From a virus (taxonomy: Duplodnaviria > Heunggongvirae > Uroviricota > Caudoviricetes), in IMG/VR virus record IMGVR_UViG_2671181050_000003: a stretch of DNA of 30,282 bases, one strand, 5' to 3'. Position numbers and translations under genes: made by a program. Below are positions 2,960 through 28,886 of the stretch, in pieces (the first letter of the stretch is position 1; every line of letters begins with the position of its first letter). Below the pieces are notes generated by a model. It had not been told where the DNA came from and ran no database searches. It saw only the letters and a program-made list of their open reading frames with translations.

Positions 2960-3564
2960 CAGTAAAACCTTTGTCTGCGGACAGGATTGCGGTATGAGGA
3001 GTACGGACTTGTCGCCAGTGTGTCGCGATATGCCCGACGGATACCCTCAGAAAACAGCACAGAGAAATACTGTGCGCGCGACGGGTCTGACCATGAAACC
3101 CCGGTCTGCATGAACAACCGTTCAAGCGCCCCTGCAGCCACTTCTTCAGACCATGCCCGCAGTTCATCCTGCACCTGACGGCTCCCTGCTTTCGGAGCAA
3201 CGGCATAAAGCACACTCACCTCTCCGGGCGAACAGGCAAAATGCATTACCCGCCCCGGGCGGATTTCCACATCCTGACCACCAACGCTAACCACAAAACT
3301 GTTCTCCGCTTCTGCAAGAGCAACCTGTTCTCTTTCCTGCGCCTGCTGTGCCTGCCGCAACTGCTCATCCTGTTGTTGCTTTTTGAGCACACCATCAAGC
3401 TCTTCATGACGAACCCAGACATCCGGAAAGGCCAGCAACTGCCAGGCAAGCGCGCTGTCAACATGCACCGGCTCAAGACGCGGAAACAGTGTACGACTGC
3501 CGGTAAGGGTATCCTTTTTCACGGGTTTGGGGCCGATATAGACAACGGCAATTTTCTCGCTCAT
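2959..3564 (-). CDS. Hypothetical virion structural protein (201 aa)
   Basis: GGGGAA ribosome-binding site upstream of the ATG; Gln-rich central coiled-coil-like segment; position in the structural operon. Confidence 0.55.
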   Translation of the reverse strand: MSEKIAVVYIGPKPVKKDTLTGSRTLFPRLEPVHVDSALAWQLLAFPDVWVRHEELDGVLKKQQQDEQLRQAQQAQEREQVALAEAENSFVVSVGGQDVEIRPGRVMHFACSPGEVSVLYAVAPKAGSRQVQDELRAWSEEVAAGALERLFMQTGVSWSDPSRAQYFSVLFSEGIRRAYRDTLATSPYSSYRNPVRRQRFY

Positions 3565-3614: not shown

Positions 3615-4007
3615 TCAGTATCCCACTACGGTATAACGCAGCAGAACATTCAGGGTACCGGTCGCAGCAGCTGTCTTAATGGTGACCGTAACCAGCTCTC
3701 CATCACTCTGTGTGGTGTACGGCTCCACTGGCACATATTTAGCAAAGCTGGCAGTTACTGCACCACTGTCACCAATGAGCTCATGCTTGCCAGATTTAAC
3801 GCTGACGGTCGCCGTACCACCAAGACCACCTTTTGAAATCAGTTGGATCCCATTAATGCGAACGCCAGTCGGCAGTGAGAGAAGATTAATAACGGTTTCC
3901 TGTTCGGCAGCATTCACTGTAAACACACCTTCTGCCACCGACTCATTACCATGCGTACCTGAATAAACCCGCTCACTCAGTGACGGAGCAAGGATAGTCT
4001 TTGCCAT
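3615..4007 (-). CDS. Hypothetical protein (130 aa), possibly a head decoration or accessory structural protein
   Basis: AGGAG ribosome-binding site; Thr/Val/Gly-rich beta-type composition; sits directly after the capsid gene and is bracketed by hairpin terminators on both sides. Confidence 0.55.
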   Translation of the reverse strand: MAKTILAPSLSERVYSGTHGNESVAEGVFTVNAAEQETVINLLSLPTGVRINGIQLISKGGLGGTATVSVKSGKHELIGDSGAVTASFAKYVPVEPYTTQSDGELVTVTIKTAAATGTLNVLLRYTVVGY

Positions 4008-4022
4008 AATTAATGACTCCTG

Positions 4023-4045
4023 AAAAAGCCGGGCGATAACCCGGC
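4023..4045 (-). terminator. Hairpin terminator downstream of the capsid gene
   Basis: GCCGGG/CCCGGC stem with a 6-nt loop followed by TTTTT on the minus strand. Confidence 0.45.
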
Positions 4046-4061
4046 ATGGGGAAAGGAAAAA

Positions 4062-5276
4062 TCACAGCTTCACTGCGGTATCAACGGCAATAACACCGTG
4101 ATCCTGCATCTTGCCGCTCTTCTCGGGGAAACGGATTTTTTTCAGACCGTTGATCCAGCTGATTGCTATCTCAGTACGGTTATCCATATCCGTTTTCTTC
4201 TCAACCATGTTGAAGTGGCCGCCGCCCTTCTGGCCGTACGCATTCGCCAGCGCCTGAGCCCCCAGCAGCATGGCACGGTCGATGTTGGTCTTGGCCTGCT
4301 TCTCCTCTGTGGTTGCTGCCATATCGTTTTTCGATACAAGGACCTTTGAGTCCTTATAGAAACGGATCGGCATCCCCGCATACTTACGGACCAGAATATT
4401 GCGCCACATCGCACATTCGCCTTTAAACAGCGGATGGTTAAAACCTTTTGAGCGGTTTACGGCACGCGTCATCATCTGGTTCCAGTCCTTGCCGGACGTG
4501 GAGGTGTACCAGTCATTCCACTGACGCGGCGTGACGTAGAGGACGTAATACGGATCTTCGCCATACAGCTCATCACCGGACAGGCGTACCGGTTGTAACG
4601 GATGAGCCATCTCGTCAATAAACAGTGAGAGATTATCGACCAGCGCAAGAGTGAACAGGTCAGACTGGTCAATACTCTCAAAACTCGTCGCATCCCCACC
4701 GAAAAAATGACGATCATGCGTCGGCGGCAGTACGTCGTTGATCATGATTTTTTTGAATTCAGGGTGATCTGCCGTTGGCAGAATGGTGTCATCAGCAACA
4801 AAATCACCGCGGGCACCGGCAAGATGCACTATCGCACACTGGTCCTGCAGGTCGTTAAAGTACGTACCCAGCAGCGTTCTGGCAGAGGATGCCAGGTTGA
4901 ACTTCGTACGCTGCTGGCTCATACGTCCGCCCGCATCCACCAGGTGACGGCCCTGATTAATTTTCAGGGAAAAATCAGCATGGCTGAGGTCTTCACCACG
5001 GCCTTCAACGCGCTCATCCCCCATCGTCGGACGTTTAGAGAGTTTGTGCATGATGCTGAACGTCACTTCATCACCGGCCTGTTTGTTGAGGTCCGTGATT
5101 CGCACAACCGGTGCACCGGCACTGGTCTGCTTCGTGCTTTTCTTGTCAGGCGAAACTGCTTTTGGTGCATCCTGCTGTTCAGTGAGTATATTCACCATTG
5201 AGCGGTTGCGGTTGGCAGCCGTGAAAAGCGCCACCTGATACAGCTTATTCGCCTGGGCTGTTGTTACTGTGGTCAT
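4062..5276 (-). CDS. Major capsid protein (404 aa), assigned by position
   Basis: A 404-aa ORF immediately after the scaffold-like gene in the terminase-portal-scaffold-capsid order, followed by a terminator; no sequence motif recognised. Confidence 0.65.
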   Translation of the reverse strand: MTTVTTAQANKLYQVALFTAANRNRSMVNILTEQQDAPKAVSPDKKSTKQTSAGAPVVRITDLNKQAGDEVTFSIMHKLSKRPTMGDERVEGRGEDLSHADFSLKINQGRHLVDAGGRMSQQRTKFNLASSARTLLGTYFNDLQDQCAIVHLAGARGDFVADDTILPTADHPEFKKIMINDVLPPTHDRHFFGGDATSFESIDQSDLFTLALVDNLSLFIDEMAHPLQPVRLSGDELYGEDPYYVLYVTPRQWNDWYTSTSGKDWNQMMTRAVNRSKGFNHPLFKGECAMWRNILVRKYAGMPIRFYKDSKVLVSKNDMAATTEEKQAKTNIDRAMLLGAQALANAYGQKGGGHFNMVEKKTDMDNRTEIAISWINGLKKIRFPEKSGKMQDHGVIAVDTAVKL

Positions 5277-16047: not shown

Positions 16048-16054
16048 ATCCAAC

Positions 16055-16300
16055 AAGAAAGCCCCTCCGGAGAGGGGCTGGAGAGTAGCGCTATGTACCG
16101 TTCATGCATGGTGCAGGGTGCCTCCCGGTGAGTTCAGTATCAGCACCTGAACCCGCACCAGAAAGGATAAGGGGTGTGACCAAACACCTGTCGCTGATAT
16201 GCCCCTCCGCACAGGGGGATTCACCATGCCATATTTTTTTAACAAACTTCCCGCTGGCCAGACAATAATCGCCAGCCTGAATTGTGAGTAACGTGGCATT
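16055..16300 (-). repeat. Repeat unit A of an ORF-free tandem family, ending in a hairpin terminator (16061..16079)
   Basis: Shares conserved blocks with unit B (aaagcccctccggagaggggctg, catggtgc.agggtgcctcccggt, gggggattcacca, atttttaacaaa, gccagacaat, aattgtgag). Confidence 0.6.
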
Positions 16301-16324: not shown

Positions 16325-16534
16325 TAAAAAGGCCCGCCGGAGCGAGCCTGGAAGGATAGCGGTCATGTGATGCCGGTTTCCCGGTAACTCAGCATCGGTA
16401 TCTGAGTCAACGTTTTCTCTACTGGGTCATTTCCGATACGTTCCGCCTTCCGGCAGACTTTCATCACGTCAGAAAATATAGCACCCTGAGTAACAGGACA
16501 GTACTCAGAATTCAGGAAACTGTGACACATCCTG
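16325..16534 (-). repeat. Diverged middle unit of the same family, with its own hairpin terminator (16330..16349)
   Basis: Opens with aaaggcccgccggagcgagcctgg...tagcggtcatg, parallel to the start of units A and B. Confidence 0.4.
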
Positions 16535-16790
16535 CACAGAAAAGCCCCTCCGGAGAGGGGCTGAAGTATAGCCTAATTTCTGTCTGTCGCATGGTGCCAG
16601 GTGCCTCCCGGTAAATTCAGCCTGGCTACTGAATTTGCATGTTCGCTGGATCATACACTTTGCCAGATGCCCCGCCGCTGAGGGGGATTCACCACGCGAT
16701 GCAATTTTTAACAAATTCTCCGGCAGCCAGACAATCATCAAGCTGTGGAATTGTGAGGTATTTAAAAATTTCGCAGCCTCTTGCCACCCG
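16535..16790 (-). repeat. Repeat unit B, ending in a hairpin terminator (16544..16561 plus T-run)
   Basis: See unit A; perfect GCCCCTC/GAGGGGC stem followed by TTTTCTGTG on the minus strand. Confidence 0.6.
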
Positions 16791-20341: not shown

Positions 20342-20609
20342 GACAACGCCCTCTGGTTGATGAATTTAACTATCACCACCGTCAGGTGCAAATCTTTGGG
20401 TGGTGAGACGTACAGGGTTTGCACTACCGGATCAACCAACCGGCGAGCCTTTCGGCTCCCCCATACGCCCCACCATAATTCAGATGTGCGTGTGCTTACG
20501 ACAACAAAAAACACGCTCGCGGCGTGTGTCTGTCGCGGTTGAATATCCGGGGTGCAAATCCCGACGCCAGATTTTGCTGGCGTGCGAAGAATATAATCCC
20601 GGATATGTG

Positions 20610-25269: not shown

Positions 25270-25695
25270 TTAGTGCATCACCACAGCATTCCCTGCCGGG
25301 CCGCCGCGATTCATCTGGTCATACAAAACAACCGCTGACGCAACAAAATCATCGACATCCTTCACCAGCCGATCCCTCCGTTCGACGATCTCACGGTAAT
25401 ATTCAGAACTGTGGCTGCGCATACGGGCCACTAGCAAAGGCGGCATCGCCTTTTCGATCGCCGGTAACAGAGCCTGCATTTTTTCAACAGCATCAGGGGT
25501 GTCTTTATCCAGCCAACGGAAAATTTTCTGGGTATTACGGGCCAGGGCTTCCGGATGGCTGTCGTCATACAGTTCCGGGAACGTCATTCCCAGCTCGAAA
25601 TACGCTTTGGTAATTTTCGCAGCCGGCACTTTTTCGCCGTCCGGATGCGCCCAGACATTCATCGCCATGCGGATGTGTTCATGCTTGATTTTCAT
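25270..25695 (-). CDS. YdaT-like protein (141 aa)
   Basis: N-terminus MKIKHEHI matches my recollection of the Rac prophage YdaT; AGGAG ribosome-binding site; immediately downstream of the Cro-like gene. Confidence 0.6.
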   Translation of the reverse strand: MKIKHEHIRMAMNVWAHPDGEKVPAAKITKAYFELGMTFPELYDDSHPEALARNTQKIFRWLDKDTPDAVEKMQALLPAIEKAMPPLLVARMRSHSSEYYREIVERRDRLVKDVDDFVASAVVLYDQMNRGGPAGNAVVMH

Positions 25696-25960
25696 GAATC
25701 AAGCTCCTAGAAAGTGGTTGTGTTAACGTTTTGGTATCTTCCAGCTCGGGCCAAATATTCATCCAATCAAAAGGCCTTAGTTGCTGACGTGTAACTTCAC
25801 CATTACTGGCTCGCTCAATAAGGACACATAACGATGCCCCTAACACTTGACCTTTACTCAATGCCTTTCTTAGATAACCGATGCTGGTACCACACTCGCA
25901 TGCAAACATACGCTGTTCATCTGACGAAAGAGAATTGAGAAATATTCTTAATTCTTCCAT
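25679..25960 (-). CDS. Cro-like / YdaS-family helix-turn-helix regulator (93 aa)
   Basis: AAGGAG ribosome-binding site; divergent from the repressor gene across an operator-rich intergenic region. Confidence 0.6.
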   Translation of the reverse strand: MEELRIFLNSLSSDEQRMFACECGTSIGYLRKALSKGQVLGASLCVLIERASNGEVTRQQLRPFDWMNIWPELEDTKTLTQPLSRSLIHENQA

Positions 25961-25989: not shown

Positions 25990-26067
25990 TACCTACAGGT
26001 AAACAAAAGTCAATACCCACAGGTTGTTTACCTTGCGGTAATCGCATCTATTATTTACCTATGGACA
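25990..26067. promoter_or_regulatory. Operator cluster: four TACC-N4-GGTA sites in the cro/repressor intergenic region (OR-like)
   Basis: tacctacaggta (25990), tacccacaggtt (26014), taccttgcggta (26029), tacctatggac (26056, overlapping the repressor ATG). Confidence 0.5.
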
Positions 26068-26480
26068 AATATGAATTTAGACGACAGCAACTCATCAAAA
26101 TTCGTGATGAGAAATGCGATGGTAAAGCGGTTAACGTGGCCAGAAAGATCGGGCGCGAGCCTTCTTATGTATCAAGAATGTTGTACCCAGAGGGGAAAAA
26201 GGGAAAAAAACGGATCGCTGATGATATGGTGGAGATTATCGAAGAGTCCTTTGGGTTACCCCGGGGATGGATGGATGGTATCGTTTCATCATCAACGAAC
26301 ACAGCCTCCAGTTATGAAACAAGGGTTCTAACGCCACGACAACGTATTTTTTTAGATCTCTTAGACGAACTGCCAGAAAGTGAAGCGGATAAATTATTAA
26401 AAACTCTTGAAGAGAAAAAACAGTATTACAATATGATCTACGAAGAAATCCGTAAAAAGAAAGCACAAAACACATCATAG
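26061..26480 (+). CDS. Prophage repressor (CI-like helix-turn-helix protein, 139 aa)
   Basis: Helix-turn-helix GKAVNVARKIGREPSYVSRM; divergent from the Cro-like gene; no ribosome-binding site before the ATG; operators on both sides. Confidence 0.65.
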   Translation: MDKYEFRRQQLIKIRDEKCDGKAVNVARKIGREPSYVSRMLYPEGKKGKKRIADDMVEIIEESFGLPRGWMDGIVSSSTNTASSYETRVLTPRQRIFLDLLDELPESEADKLLKTLEEKKQYYNMIYEEIRKKKAQNTS

Positions 26481-26745: not shown

Positions 26746-26901
26746 ATGGATACTATCGATCTTGGCAACAGCGAATCTCTGGTATGTGGCGTGTTCCCCA
26801 ACCAGGACGGTACGTTCACCGCGATGACGTATACCAAAAGCAAAACGTTTAAAACCGAAAATGGTGCCCGTCGCTGGCTGGAAAGAAACTCAGGTGAGTG
26901 A
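26746..26901 (+). CDS. Small protein, YdfA-like (51 aa)
   Basis: Internal ATG of track ORF 26665..26901 preceded by GAGGT; size and position match the first small gene of the Qin dicB operon. Confidence 0.5.
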   Translation: MDTIDLGNSESLVCGVFPNQDGTFTAMTYTKSKTFKTENGARRWLERNSGE

Positions 26902-26902
26902 T

Positions 26903-27031
26903 ATGGATTTCGACACAATCATGGAAAAGGCTTACGAAGAATACTTCGAAGGTCTTGCCGAAGGCGAAGAAGCTCTCAGCTTCAGTGAATTTAAACAGGC
27001 GCTTTCCAGTTCGGCAAAATCTAACGGCTGA
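26903..27031 (+). CDS. Small acidic protein, YdfB-like (42 aa)
   Basis: Not in the track (under 60 aa). ATG at 26903 preceded by AGGTGAG and starting 1 nt after the previous stop; MDFDTIMEKAYEEYFEGLAEGEEALSFSEFKQALSSSAKSNG. Confidence 0.45.
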   Translation: MDFDTIMEKAYEEYFEGLAEGEEALSFSEFKQALSSSAKSNG

Positions 27032-27060: not shown

Positions 27061-27279
27061 ATGCAGAAACGAGAACCCGTCATCATCGCGCCAGACTATA
27101 CCGATGATGAACTTTATGAGTGGATGCGCCAGAAAATTAATGCAGTGCAGGATCTGAAATGGGCCAATGAAGCCAGGACTAAGCAGGCTGAAAATCTGTC
27201 CGCTCTGGAGCAGGATATCACCAGGCTGGAAAAAGCAGCGGCATTAAGCATTGCCAGAATGGTTACATACCCACGTTAA
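27061..27279 (+). CDS. Small protein, YdfC-like (72 aa)
   Basis: Size and position in the early-left operon. Confidence 0.5.
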   Translation: MQKREPVIIAPDYTDDELYEWMRQKINAVQDLKWANEARTKQAENLSALEQDITRLEKAAALSIARMVTYPR

Positions 27280-27301
27280 TAGCTAACCAACGAGGCTAAT
27301 A

Positions 27302-27703
27302 ATGGAATTTAAAGATTTACCAATGCAATTCCAGGAAATGGCAGCGAATATAGTTCGTTCCCAACTGGCGACTCTTGACCTGAGTACCGTAGAAAAAGAA
27401 ACCATCGATACTATATCCGGTAACGTGCGTCGTGCCTTTATAGGTCTGTATGAAGAGAAGCGCCTATTCGGCGGACAGAATTCGCCTGAAAACAAGAATC
27501 AAGCAAATGATGAGAAGCTGAAACACATTATCGCCTTACTTTTGGAAGACGCAAAACGTCTACAGCAACTGGAACCAAATGCAGGCACAGAGGCCCGCAT
27601 TTGGATTGCCATGAAATCACTCAAATGTGAAAGCAGTGATTATTTCAAAACAACAATTAAAACTACTCAACTTTCGGGAGAGCTACTGAAGAAATTGCCA
27701 TAA
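27302..27703 (+). CDS. Hypothetical protein (133 aa), helical
   Basis: GAGG ribosome-binding site; 3' end overlaps the convergent minus-strand gene by about 40 nt. Confidence 0.5.
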   Translation: MEFKDLPMQFQEMAANIVRSQLATLDLSTVEKETIDTISGNVRRAFIGLYEEKRLFGGQNSPENKNQANDEKLKHIIALLLEDAKRLQQLEPNAGTEARIWIAMKSLKCESSDYFKTTIKTTQLSGELLKKLP

Positions 27704-27941
27704 GAGCACGGTCTTTCTCTTGTTCTGCAAGATGAGCATTAATACCTGGTATGGTTTTTTCAAATTTATCTATCTGTTGAATAACAACTTCGCGGTATAC
27801 GTTTGTTTTTGTACCACCAAGCGCAGCCGTTAATGCAGAAAGCATATTTAGTATCATATCAGTGCGATATGAAAGAATCCTGATAGCTTCATCTTGTTCT
27901 TCAATAATAGATTGCAGGGCCTCAATTTGCTTTTTATCCAT
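27663..27941 (-). CDS. Hypothetical protein (92 aa), helical
   Basis: Internal ATG (MDKKQIEAL...) preceded by AGGAGGG; convergent with and overlapping the 133-aa gene. Confidence 0.5.
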   Translation of the reverse strand: MDKKQIEALQSIIEEQDEAIRILSYRTDMILNMLSALTAALGGTKTNVYREVVIQQIDKFEKTIPGINAHLAEQEKDRALMAISSVALPKVE

Positions 27942-28276
27942 TTCACCCTCCTGAGGGTTGGTAATTAAGGAGTTCTCCACGGGTCAGGTGGAGTGCGTGC
28001 GCCGGACACGGGTGAGCATCCGGCACTGACAGCTTACTGAAAGGATATGTCCCTGAAAAGTCAGGGCATAACGCGAAAGCGCACGGCGAAATTGGTCTCT
28101 CTGTACGGTGTCGTTAAATTTAGTTCGACCGTGCGCTTCCGGTTGTGGCACTCCGCGAAATGGCGCGGCGGTAAGTATGGCTGGGGTTTCCTCCATTGCT
28201 CCAGAAAATGCACCGGGTTGTCAGGTTGACCATACGCTTAAGTGACAACCCCGCTACAACGCCCTCTGTTATCAAT

Positions 28277-28334
28277 TTTCTGGTGACATTTGGCGGTATC
28301 AGTTTTACTCCGTGACTGCTCTGCCGCCCTTTTT
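28277..28334 (+). ncRNA. dicF: DicF-like small RNA
   Basis: tttctggtgacatttggcggtatcagttttactccgtgactgctctgccgcccttttt matches the E. coli DicF sequence as I recall it with about one substitution; followed by dicB-like and ydfD-like genes as in Qin. Confidence 0.65.
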
Positions 28335-28512
28335 AAAGTGAATTTTGTGATGCGGTGAATGCGGCTATGCGCACGCGGAACAGTTAAAGCAGTAAGGCGG
28401 TATTTTACGGGCGTAACGAGCATCAACTAACCCGGCGTTAATTGTTAACTGGTTAACGTCACCTAGAGGCACCAGGCACTGCATCACAAAATTCATTGTT
28501 GAGGACGCGATA

Positions 28513-28701
28513 ATGGAAACGTTATTACCAAACGTTAATACGTCTGAAGGTTGTTTTGATATTGGTGTTCTGCTCAGTAACCGGGAGTTTACTGAAGATG
28601 CCATTAATATGAGGAAATATGAGCCTTATCTGCTCAATGATAATTCCATACTTTCCCGAATTGCTCTTCTTGAACTTGGTATTTTCGGAGAACGTCAATG
28701 A
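28513..28701 (+). CDS. dicB: DicB-like cell-division inhibitor (62 aa)
   Basis: N-terminus METLLPNVNTSEGCFDIG closely matches my recollection of DicB; GAGGA ribosome-binding site; immediately downstream of DicF. Confidence 0.6.
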   Translation: METLLPNVNTSEGCFDIGVLLSNREFTEDAINMRKYEPYLLNDNSILSRIALLELGIFGERQ

Positions 28702-28886
28702 CTTCAGCATTTGCACTGATGATGACGGTTTTTCTTATAACGGGTGAATCACAGAATGTGATTACCGGAATTTATGCAAGTAAAGAATCCTGCCTCCAGG
28801 CAAGAGACGAGCAAAAAATTTCTGGTGAATGCCTCCCGCTAAAAAAAGTATCGCTGTACCTGAATAACGAAACACCGGCTGGATAA
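28698..28886 (+). CDS. YdfD-like small protein with N-terminal hydrophobic segment (62 aa)
   Basis: GGAGA ribosome-binding site; start overlaps the dicB-like stop; N-terminal MTSAFALMMTVFLITG. Confidence 0.5.
   Translation: MTSAFALMMTVFLITGESQNVITGIYASKESCLQARDEQKISGECLPLKKVSLYLNNETPAG

Follow-up and report, generated by a model that had tools for sequence, protein, structure and literature searches.

The gene pair between ydfC and DicF

The window (here and below, the whole stretch of 30,282 nucleotides that was analysed) contains the immunity and early-left region of an E. coli lambdoid prophage of the Qin/Rac type. The features of this region, with the evidence for their assignment in brackets, are the following.

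25270-25960, minus strand: Cro-like and YdaT-like genes
26061-26480, plus strand: DicA-like repressor
26746-26901, plus strand: ydfA (DUF1391)
26903-27031, plus strand: ydfB
27061-27279, plus strand: ydfC-like gene, 72 aa, left conserved flank of the slot described below (open reading frame list; ydfC annotation in relatives; alignment with K-12 ydfC)
27302-27703, plus strand: gene P, 133 aa, ATG start, co-oriented with the dicBF (early-left) operon (open reading frame list)
27302-27481, plus strand: N-terminal module of P, about residues 1-60, or 1-62 by PHROG sub-hits (phrog_6937, phrog_2151 and phrog_9419 sub-hits; allele comparison)
27506-27703, plus strand: C-terminal module of P, about residues 69-133 (PHROG sub-hits; free-standing homologues)
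27663-27941, minus strand: gene M, 92 aa from its ATG, antisense to the dicBF operon (open reading frame list)
27663-27703, both strands: tail-to-tail overlap of P and M, 41 nt
27942-27952, minus strand: ribosome-binding region of M, AGGAGGGTGAA, directly 5′ of the ATG (sequence; allele survey)
27955-28277, plus strand: 'DicF leader', conserved structured right flank of the slot (alignments; compensatory pairs)
28278-28329, plus strand: DicF sRNA (Rfam RF00039, 77 bits)
28513-28701, plus strand: dicB, 62 aa, cell-division inhibitor, downstream of the slot (open reading frame list; dicB annotation in near-identical genomes)
28698-28886, plus strand: ydfD-like gene

Genes for a RecE-type exonuclease, xis and int come next in near-identical genomes. 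The original prediction had described a convergent, 3′-overlapping pair of genes of 133 aa (plus strand) and 92 aa (minus strand), with good ribosome-binding sites and an overlap of about 40 nt, inserted where roughly 1 kb separates the ydfC-like gene from DicF, and in all these respects it was accurate. The overlap measures 41 nt by coordinates; P is preceded by GAGG at 27292-27295, 6 nt 5′ of its ATG, and M by AGGAGG at 27952-27947, 5 nt 5′ of its ATG. Since Rfam places DicF at 28278-28329, the gap between ydfC and DicF is 998 nt, as compared to 340 nt in the Qin prophage of K-12. A three-way alignment revealed that K-12 Qin is devoid of exactly the two-gene cassette of ~650 bp (~27300-27952), with conserved sequence on both sides, and the insertion thus coincides with the cassette. 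A version of M extended to 105 aa from a GTG codon is unlikely.

Coding evidence for P and M

Both open reading frames are called as hypothetical proteins by PGAP in near-identical E. coli genomes (WP_001339605.1 and WP_000358769.1), and a literature search by protein accession found no paper on P or M. Comparison by the Nei-Gojobori method, between homologues that are just 63-71% identical in protein, gave a dN/dS of 0.24-0.26 for M against its Salmonella homologues and of 0.18 for the C-terminal module (C-module) of P against a Salmonella gene of 71 aa. Judged by these ratios of about 0.2, P and M evolve as proteins under purifying selection. Moreover, start codons and ribosome-binding sites are conserved, the GC content by codon position is coding-like, and full-length homologues of M occur in Salmonella prophages at 71% and ~43% identity (range 43-71%). 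That P and M are real genes we regard as established.

A polymorphic slot in related prophages

An exact-match scan of IMG/VR for a 24-mer of the right flank retrieved 120 loci, most of which (89, ~74%) were empty, like K-12, while the other 31 had a cassette. The occupied loci were divided into five classes by their minus-strand gene (92/91, 73, 77 and 63 aa), and a sixth class, named A', came from a protein-based scan.

Class A (this window): P 133 aa, M 92 aa, overlap 41 nt
Class B: P 106-109 aa, M 91 aa, overlap 23-32 nt
Class C: P 124 aa, M 73 aa, overlap 11 nt
Class D (E. coli O157:H7): P 135 aa, M 77 aa, overlap 23 nt
Class E: P 200 aa, M 63 aa, overlap 23 nt
Class A': P 133 aa, 89% identical (protein) to that of class A, M 61 aa, unrelated, no overlap

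Classes A-E share the right flank and the ribosome-binding region AGGAGG(G/A)(T/G)GAA, with small variants just 5′ of this region. Class A' differs in its flank, has its two genes separated by a hairpin, and regains homology to the window at 27983. The loci of this class also show a shortened variant of DicF, TTTTCTGGTGATTCGGCGGAAATGGATATCCGCCATTTTT (~3960-4010 in locus L060), with an altered seed or terminator region, so that in some prophages DicF varies with the type of cassette.

Classes B and C have ~95 residues of P in common and different M genes, and classes D and E have the central part of P in common, again with different M genes. These two patterns indicate that M was swapped without regard to the type of P and that the breakpoints fall near the 3′ end of P. 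In six class-A loci M is frameshifted, with a product of 27 aa, and P is intact.

Among 5426 complete E. coli genomes, this allele was found in 124, when at least 80% of its length had to be covered (strains with this allele include E. coli CE10, NC_017646, and AR_0013, NZ_CP032204), and a further ~1650 share only part of it; the wider dicBF region was matched in 4757 of the same genomes. Since most related prophages do not have the cassette, any function that it exerts must be dispensable, and the pair proved to be accessory and not part of the conserved core, as had been anticipated. On this comparison of alleles, the junction between ydfC and the DicF leader is a polymorphic slot for at least six alternative minus-strand genes. 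The characters expected of a moron or accessory cassette were found here: presence or absence at a fixed site between conserved flanks, a minus-strand gene within a plus-strand operon and an atypical base composition (GC of M 37% and GC3 25%, in a window of 50.5% GC).

Protein families of P and M

P matches phrog_1363, a PHROGs family of function unknown, and the PHROG sub-hits split it into two modules. Essentially all of its 275 homologues are from Escherichia and other enterobacterial prophages. The N-terminal module (N-module) is common to all cassette alleles, which share the first ~55-60 residues of P, and it is also present in other early-left phage proteins, e.g. gp22 of the Stx phage ArgO145, which lacks an antisense partner. 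The C-module, with the motif ELKHxIxLLLEDAKRLQQxEPNAGTEARIW, stands alone as a gene of 71-97 aa in phages of Salmonella, Cronobacter and Aeromonas, namely in Salmonella Rac-like prophages (71 aa), in Cronobacter phage phiES15 (gp10) and in Aeromonas phage pAEv1818 (gp20); in all three settings it is the first gene downstream of a DicA-type repressor. P is therefore modular. Its AF2 model is all-helical and of low confidence (pLDDT 52), too poor as a query for structure searches.

M matches phrog_18692, also of function unknown. An exhaustive HMMER profile search of 1.84 billion representative proteins collected a family of 21 clusters, all of them small prophage proteins with the exception of one long repetitive protein. 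M was seen in chromosomal prophages only, and tblastn gave no match to it in 50,697 GenBank phage records. The protein is mildly acidic and predicted to be soluble (GRAVY -0.11, pI 5.2); its AF2 model, of moderate confidence (pLDDT 73), shows amphipathic helices, a first one of 39 residues (3-41) followed by those at 48-58 and 69-85, and structure searches with M gave generic helical matches only. Between the 92-aa and 91-aa types (M92 and M91) there is a distant homology, with 27% identity and a pairwise E of 1e-4, and Salmonella proteins link the two at 43-46%. The slot proteins of 73, 77, 63 and 61 aa have no significant similarity to M92/M91 or to each other, so that a relationship among all M types found no support and just the 92-aa and 91-aa types are demonstrably related.

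P, M and all the alternative slot proteins gave nothing above threshold in Pfam, NCBIfam and PADLOC (no match at E<0.01 in PADLOC-DB 2.0), and in PHROGs they hit unknown-function families only; sequence searches of the PDB were equally negative. The view that neither protein belongs to a known family was thus upheld. The one sub-threshold signal was a RelB-like antitoxin match of M in NCBIfam, with E 0.013 and 15.7 bits against a cut-off of 50.

Convergent pairs in other genera

Convergent arrangements with relatives of P or M recur in other genera. In a Salmonella Rac-like prophage the 71-aa C-module gene converges with an M homologue of 93 aa (M93), with an overlap of 41 nt. In Cronobacter phiES15 and Aeromonas pAEv1818 the C-module gene converges with an unrelated protein of ~93-95 aa (phrog_8894), with an overlap of 30 nt; scans upstream of the antisense genes of both phages gave no promoter. 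In phiES15 (L210, JQ780327) the antisense gene is an unannotated 95-aa open reading frame at 3235-3522 on the minus strand, homologous to gp19 of pAEv1818 and convergent with gp10. In Salmonella P2/186-like prophages, finally, the partner of a 92-aa M is a helix-turn-helix (HTH) protein of 171-191 aa, encoded downstream of cox, and the overlap is again 41 nt. This protein resembles the tail of P in its last ~12 residues only, the very stretch whose coding sequence lies opposite that of the conserved M C-terminus (...SVALPK..).

The slot and the sieB locus

The order of genes in the window is dicA-like, ydfA (DUF1391), ydfB, ydfC, P converging with M, DicF, dicB and, further on, the recE-like gene. 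In Rac the order is racR, ydaG and ydaF (DUF1391), the last converging with sieB, followed by the KilS sRNA, kilR, ydaE, racC and recE; the tails of ydaF and sieB overlap by 4 nt, and those of N and sieB in lambda abut. In lambda and in Rac, therefore, sieB runs against the early-left operon and meets an early gene tail to tail close to the repressor, and M is placed in the same way. The likeness to Rac goes further, as sieB is followed there by KilS and kilR, and M by DicF and dicB in the window; in the Rac record of K-12 (L212) sieB, KilS and kilR lie at 3906-4660, in the order of the window. This synteny is established, and the shared layout puts M in the position of a classic prophage-expressed exclusion gene, in agreement with the original prediction that the region is a classic site for such genes. 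It also suggests that the early-left operons of DicA/RacR-type prophages share a blueprint. The likeness is one of place and is no test of function.

SieB is a membrane-associated protein. A homology between M and SieB was considered and rejected, as the alignment of the M profile with lambda and Rac SieB had an hhalign probability <1% and M has no Pfam match. Proteins of the SieB type measure ~160-190 aa, the Rac and lambda records having 162-184 aa, and contain hydrophobic membrane segments; M differs on both counts, with 92 aa and a predicted soluble, all-helical structure.

An antisense placement within lytic genes has been reported as characteristic of prophage accessory loci, one such moron being STMMW_20121 of ST64B (Owen et al. 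2020; PMC7067206). M is similar to such loci in being optional, AT-rich and antisense to lytic genes, between conserved flanks in otherwise syntenic prophages. On the other hand, no convincing promoter was found for M and no terminator between the two genes of this allele, the slot offers one ribosome-binding site to unrelated coding sequences, and M overlaps its convergent neighbour. The cassette is, in short, an antisense accessory cassette in an early-left operon, which is a known kind of locus; its protein families are uncharacterised and its conserved slot architecture is unusual.

The closest backbone is that of the K-12 Qin dicBF operon (ydfABC-dicF-dicB-ydfD), with the same DicA-type repressor, DicF and dicB (PMC5069750); the difference is that the P/M cassette is absent from it, as in about three quarters of the sampled relatives. 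This operon has been studied for DicF and DicB, and neither a gene between ydfC and dicF nor a variable antisense slot is discussed in PMC5069750 or PMC6206680. The slot is a compact and well-delimited hotspot for at least six orphan small-protein families, in the position that the exclusion gene has in lambda and Rac.

Signals for the expression of M

A standard scan of the minus strand for a sigma-70 promoter of M gave none, and a relaxed scan yielded nothing beyond an 8/12 match within antisense DicF, which would imply a leader of ~325 nt. No CII-type motif (TTGC-N6-TTGC) was found near M. In this allele there is no terminator-like site within or between P and M; on the minus strand the closest such site lies inside ydfC, so that a transcript of M would run antisense through P.

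The DicF leader precedes M when read on the minus strand and DicF when read on the plus strand. It is ~320 nt long, GC-rich and far more conserved than the neighbouring protein genes, M included; of its 62 predicted pairs, 21 show compensatory changes, and it belongs to no Rfam family. The asymmetry of G-U pairs and the consensus folding energy speak mildly for the DicF strand rather than the M strand. The same element, ~300 nt long there, also adjoins M-family genes in Salmonella P2/186-like prophages, in loci without an Rfam match to DicF, at these positions:

L207-L209, ~3648-3987: leader element
L204, 3660-3987: leader element

The DicF leader could be an undescribed processing or antitermination element. 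It contains a 70-aa open reading frame on the minus strand (27984-28196), and in some alleles the frame is open from the leader into M; the homologues of this frame differ by insertions and deletions that are not multiples of three, which indicates that it is not coding.

Interpretation of the cassette

The reading that we prefer, with a probability of about 45%, is that the slot is an exchangeable accessory site equivalent to the sieB slot, in which P is an early-lytic modular accessory protein and M an antisense, exchanged accessory protein, probably expressed by the resident prophage, the expression of the two being mutually exclusive. P, as a modular accessory protein, would belong to the early-left (dicBF) operon that DicA represses and, owing to this repression, it would be made on induction or infection. 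M would be a distinct protein, small, soluble and helical, that is exchanged horizontally and encoded on the strand opposite the operon; it would be made by the resident prophage like other antisense moron genes, and it may act on a superinfecting phage or on host physiology. Exclusion, abortive infection and modulation of the host or of the operon are candidate roles for it. Since nothing like a terminator separates the two convergent, overlapping genes, a transcript that reads in from either side would be antisense to the other gene, and from this mutual antisense RNA we infer that P and M are expressed in alternative states. M would then be active in the lysogen and shut off once the early-left operon is transcribed. 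This would be analogous to the antisense control of P22, in which the expression of sieB is modulated by an antisense RNA, sas (PMC12197685). The convergent overlap would in this case illustrate, in a natural setting, how lysogenic and lytic expression can exclude each other. If the slot proteins are exclusion, defence or regulatory factors, the conserved flanks offer a handle for mining more of them across prophages; if they have no phenotype, the locus is mere prophage mosaicism.

Another explanation, in our opinion rather unlikely but deserving the most attention among the alternatives, is that P and M are functionally unrelated, M may be expressed at any stage, and the overlap is a by-product of the recombination of cassettes into a hotspot, with no regulatory or protein interplay: an incoming minus-strand cassette would bring with it the final codons and stop codon of the upstream gene. 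Several observations fit this, namely (i) M types are swapped independently of P types in classes B/C and D/E; (ii) classes A and A' combine P proteins that are 89% identical (aa) with unrelated M genes; (iii) the HTH partner in the Salmonella P2-like prophages shares with P just the ~12-residue tail that is antisense to the C-terminus of M; (iv) the length of the overlap varies by class (11, 23, 32 or 41 nt, and none in A'). Against it, a convergent and overlapping antisense gene is found beside the C-module in four genera, with different partner families, and this recurrence suggests that the arrangement itself is maintained; furthermore, transcription units that converge and overlap disturb each other whether this is selected for or not.

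The slot might also be a dedicated expression site, made of the conserved flank and the ribosome-binding site by the DicF leader, through which Qin/Rac-type and some P2-like prophages exchange a varied set of small anti-phage proteins, for exclusion or abortive infection, expressed in the lysogen, with the convergent P/C-module, the antisense transcript or both providing self-immunity on induction. We consider this improbable. If true, it would define a new class of miniature modules for defence and self-immunity, with at least 6-7 unrelated orphan protein families.

Even less probable, in our estimate, is a toxin-antitoxin or toxin-immunity pair, in which P, or its variable C-terminal part, would be toxic and would be neutralised by the M protein or by the M mRNA acting as antisense. 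Convergent, 3′-overlapping type I toxin-antitoxin loci are known from Bacillus subtilis prophages, such as txpA/RatA and bsrG/SR4, and P and M resemble them in their convergent units, 3′ overlap and prophage location. The variable C-terminal region of P adjoins the variable M gene, the C-module and the M family occur together in E. coli and Salmonella with the same 41-nt overlap, and the sub-threshold RelB-like match of M points in the same direction. The known type I loci, however, consist of a small hydrophobic toxin and a non-coding antisense RNA, whereas P and M are both hydrophilic, conserved protein genes (92-133 aa, dN/dS ~0.2), P is not a small hydrophobic peptide any more than M is, and their partners are swapped independently. 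Type II systems are co-directional, co-transcribed operons with family homology and obligate co-occurrence of the partners, but P and M are convergent, show no match to a toxin or antitoxin family above threshold, and do without each other: near-identical P proteins are found with unrelated M genes, the M family is found with an unrelated HTH protein, and M is frameshifted in six class-A loci in which P is intact. The suggestion that the pair might be toxic with mutual neutralisation is accordingly disfavoured by the independent exchange of M, by its HTH partner and by these frameshifts.

A functional tie of M to the DicF leader seems to us very doubtful. M could for example be a small RNA-binding or regulatory protein for the processing, termination or read-through of DicF, or the leader could be the regulatory 5′ UTR of M. 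This would account for the finding of the M family next to the same ~300-nt element in two unrelated types of phage, lambdoid and P2/186-like, and for a conservation of the element far above that of M; besides, the sole weak promoter candidate of M is beyond the leader, which, if that promoter were used, would be the 5′ UTR of M. Most loci, though, have the leader and DicF without any M, unrelated proteins occupy the position of M, the strand analysis is mildly in favour of the DicF strand, and neither the AF2 model nor the structure searches gave M a recognisable nucleic-acid-binding fold.

That one or both open reading frames are unexpressed annotation artefacts or decaying remnants, as the dispensable cassette, the frameshifts in some of its copies and the failure of the scans to find an M promoter might suggest, is contradicted by the selection data (dN/dS ~0.2 in both genes) and can hardly be reconciled with the retained start codons and strong ribosome-binding sites, the full-length M homologues of Salmonella (43-71% identity) and the annotation of both genes by PGAP.

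Other RNA elements of the region

Between DicF and dicB, at 28341-28490 on the plus strand, there is an STnc100-like match that is weak (24 bits, E 0.004) and does not reach the gathering score; two full STnc100 copies are on the minus strand at 16049-16258 and 16534-16727. The window also contains, on the minus strand, a pair made of isrK (20506-20583) and a C4 antisense RNA (20396-20480), an immI-like prophage RNA module, and the Salmonella P2-like prophages (L207-L209) have C4-like copies downstream of the M slot.
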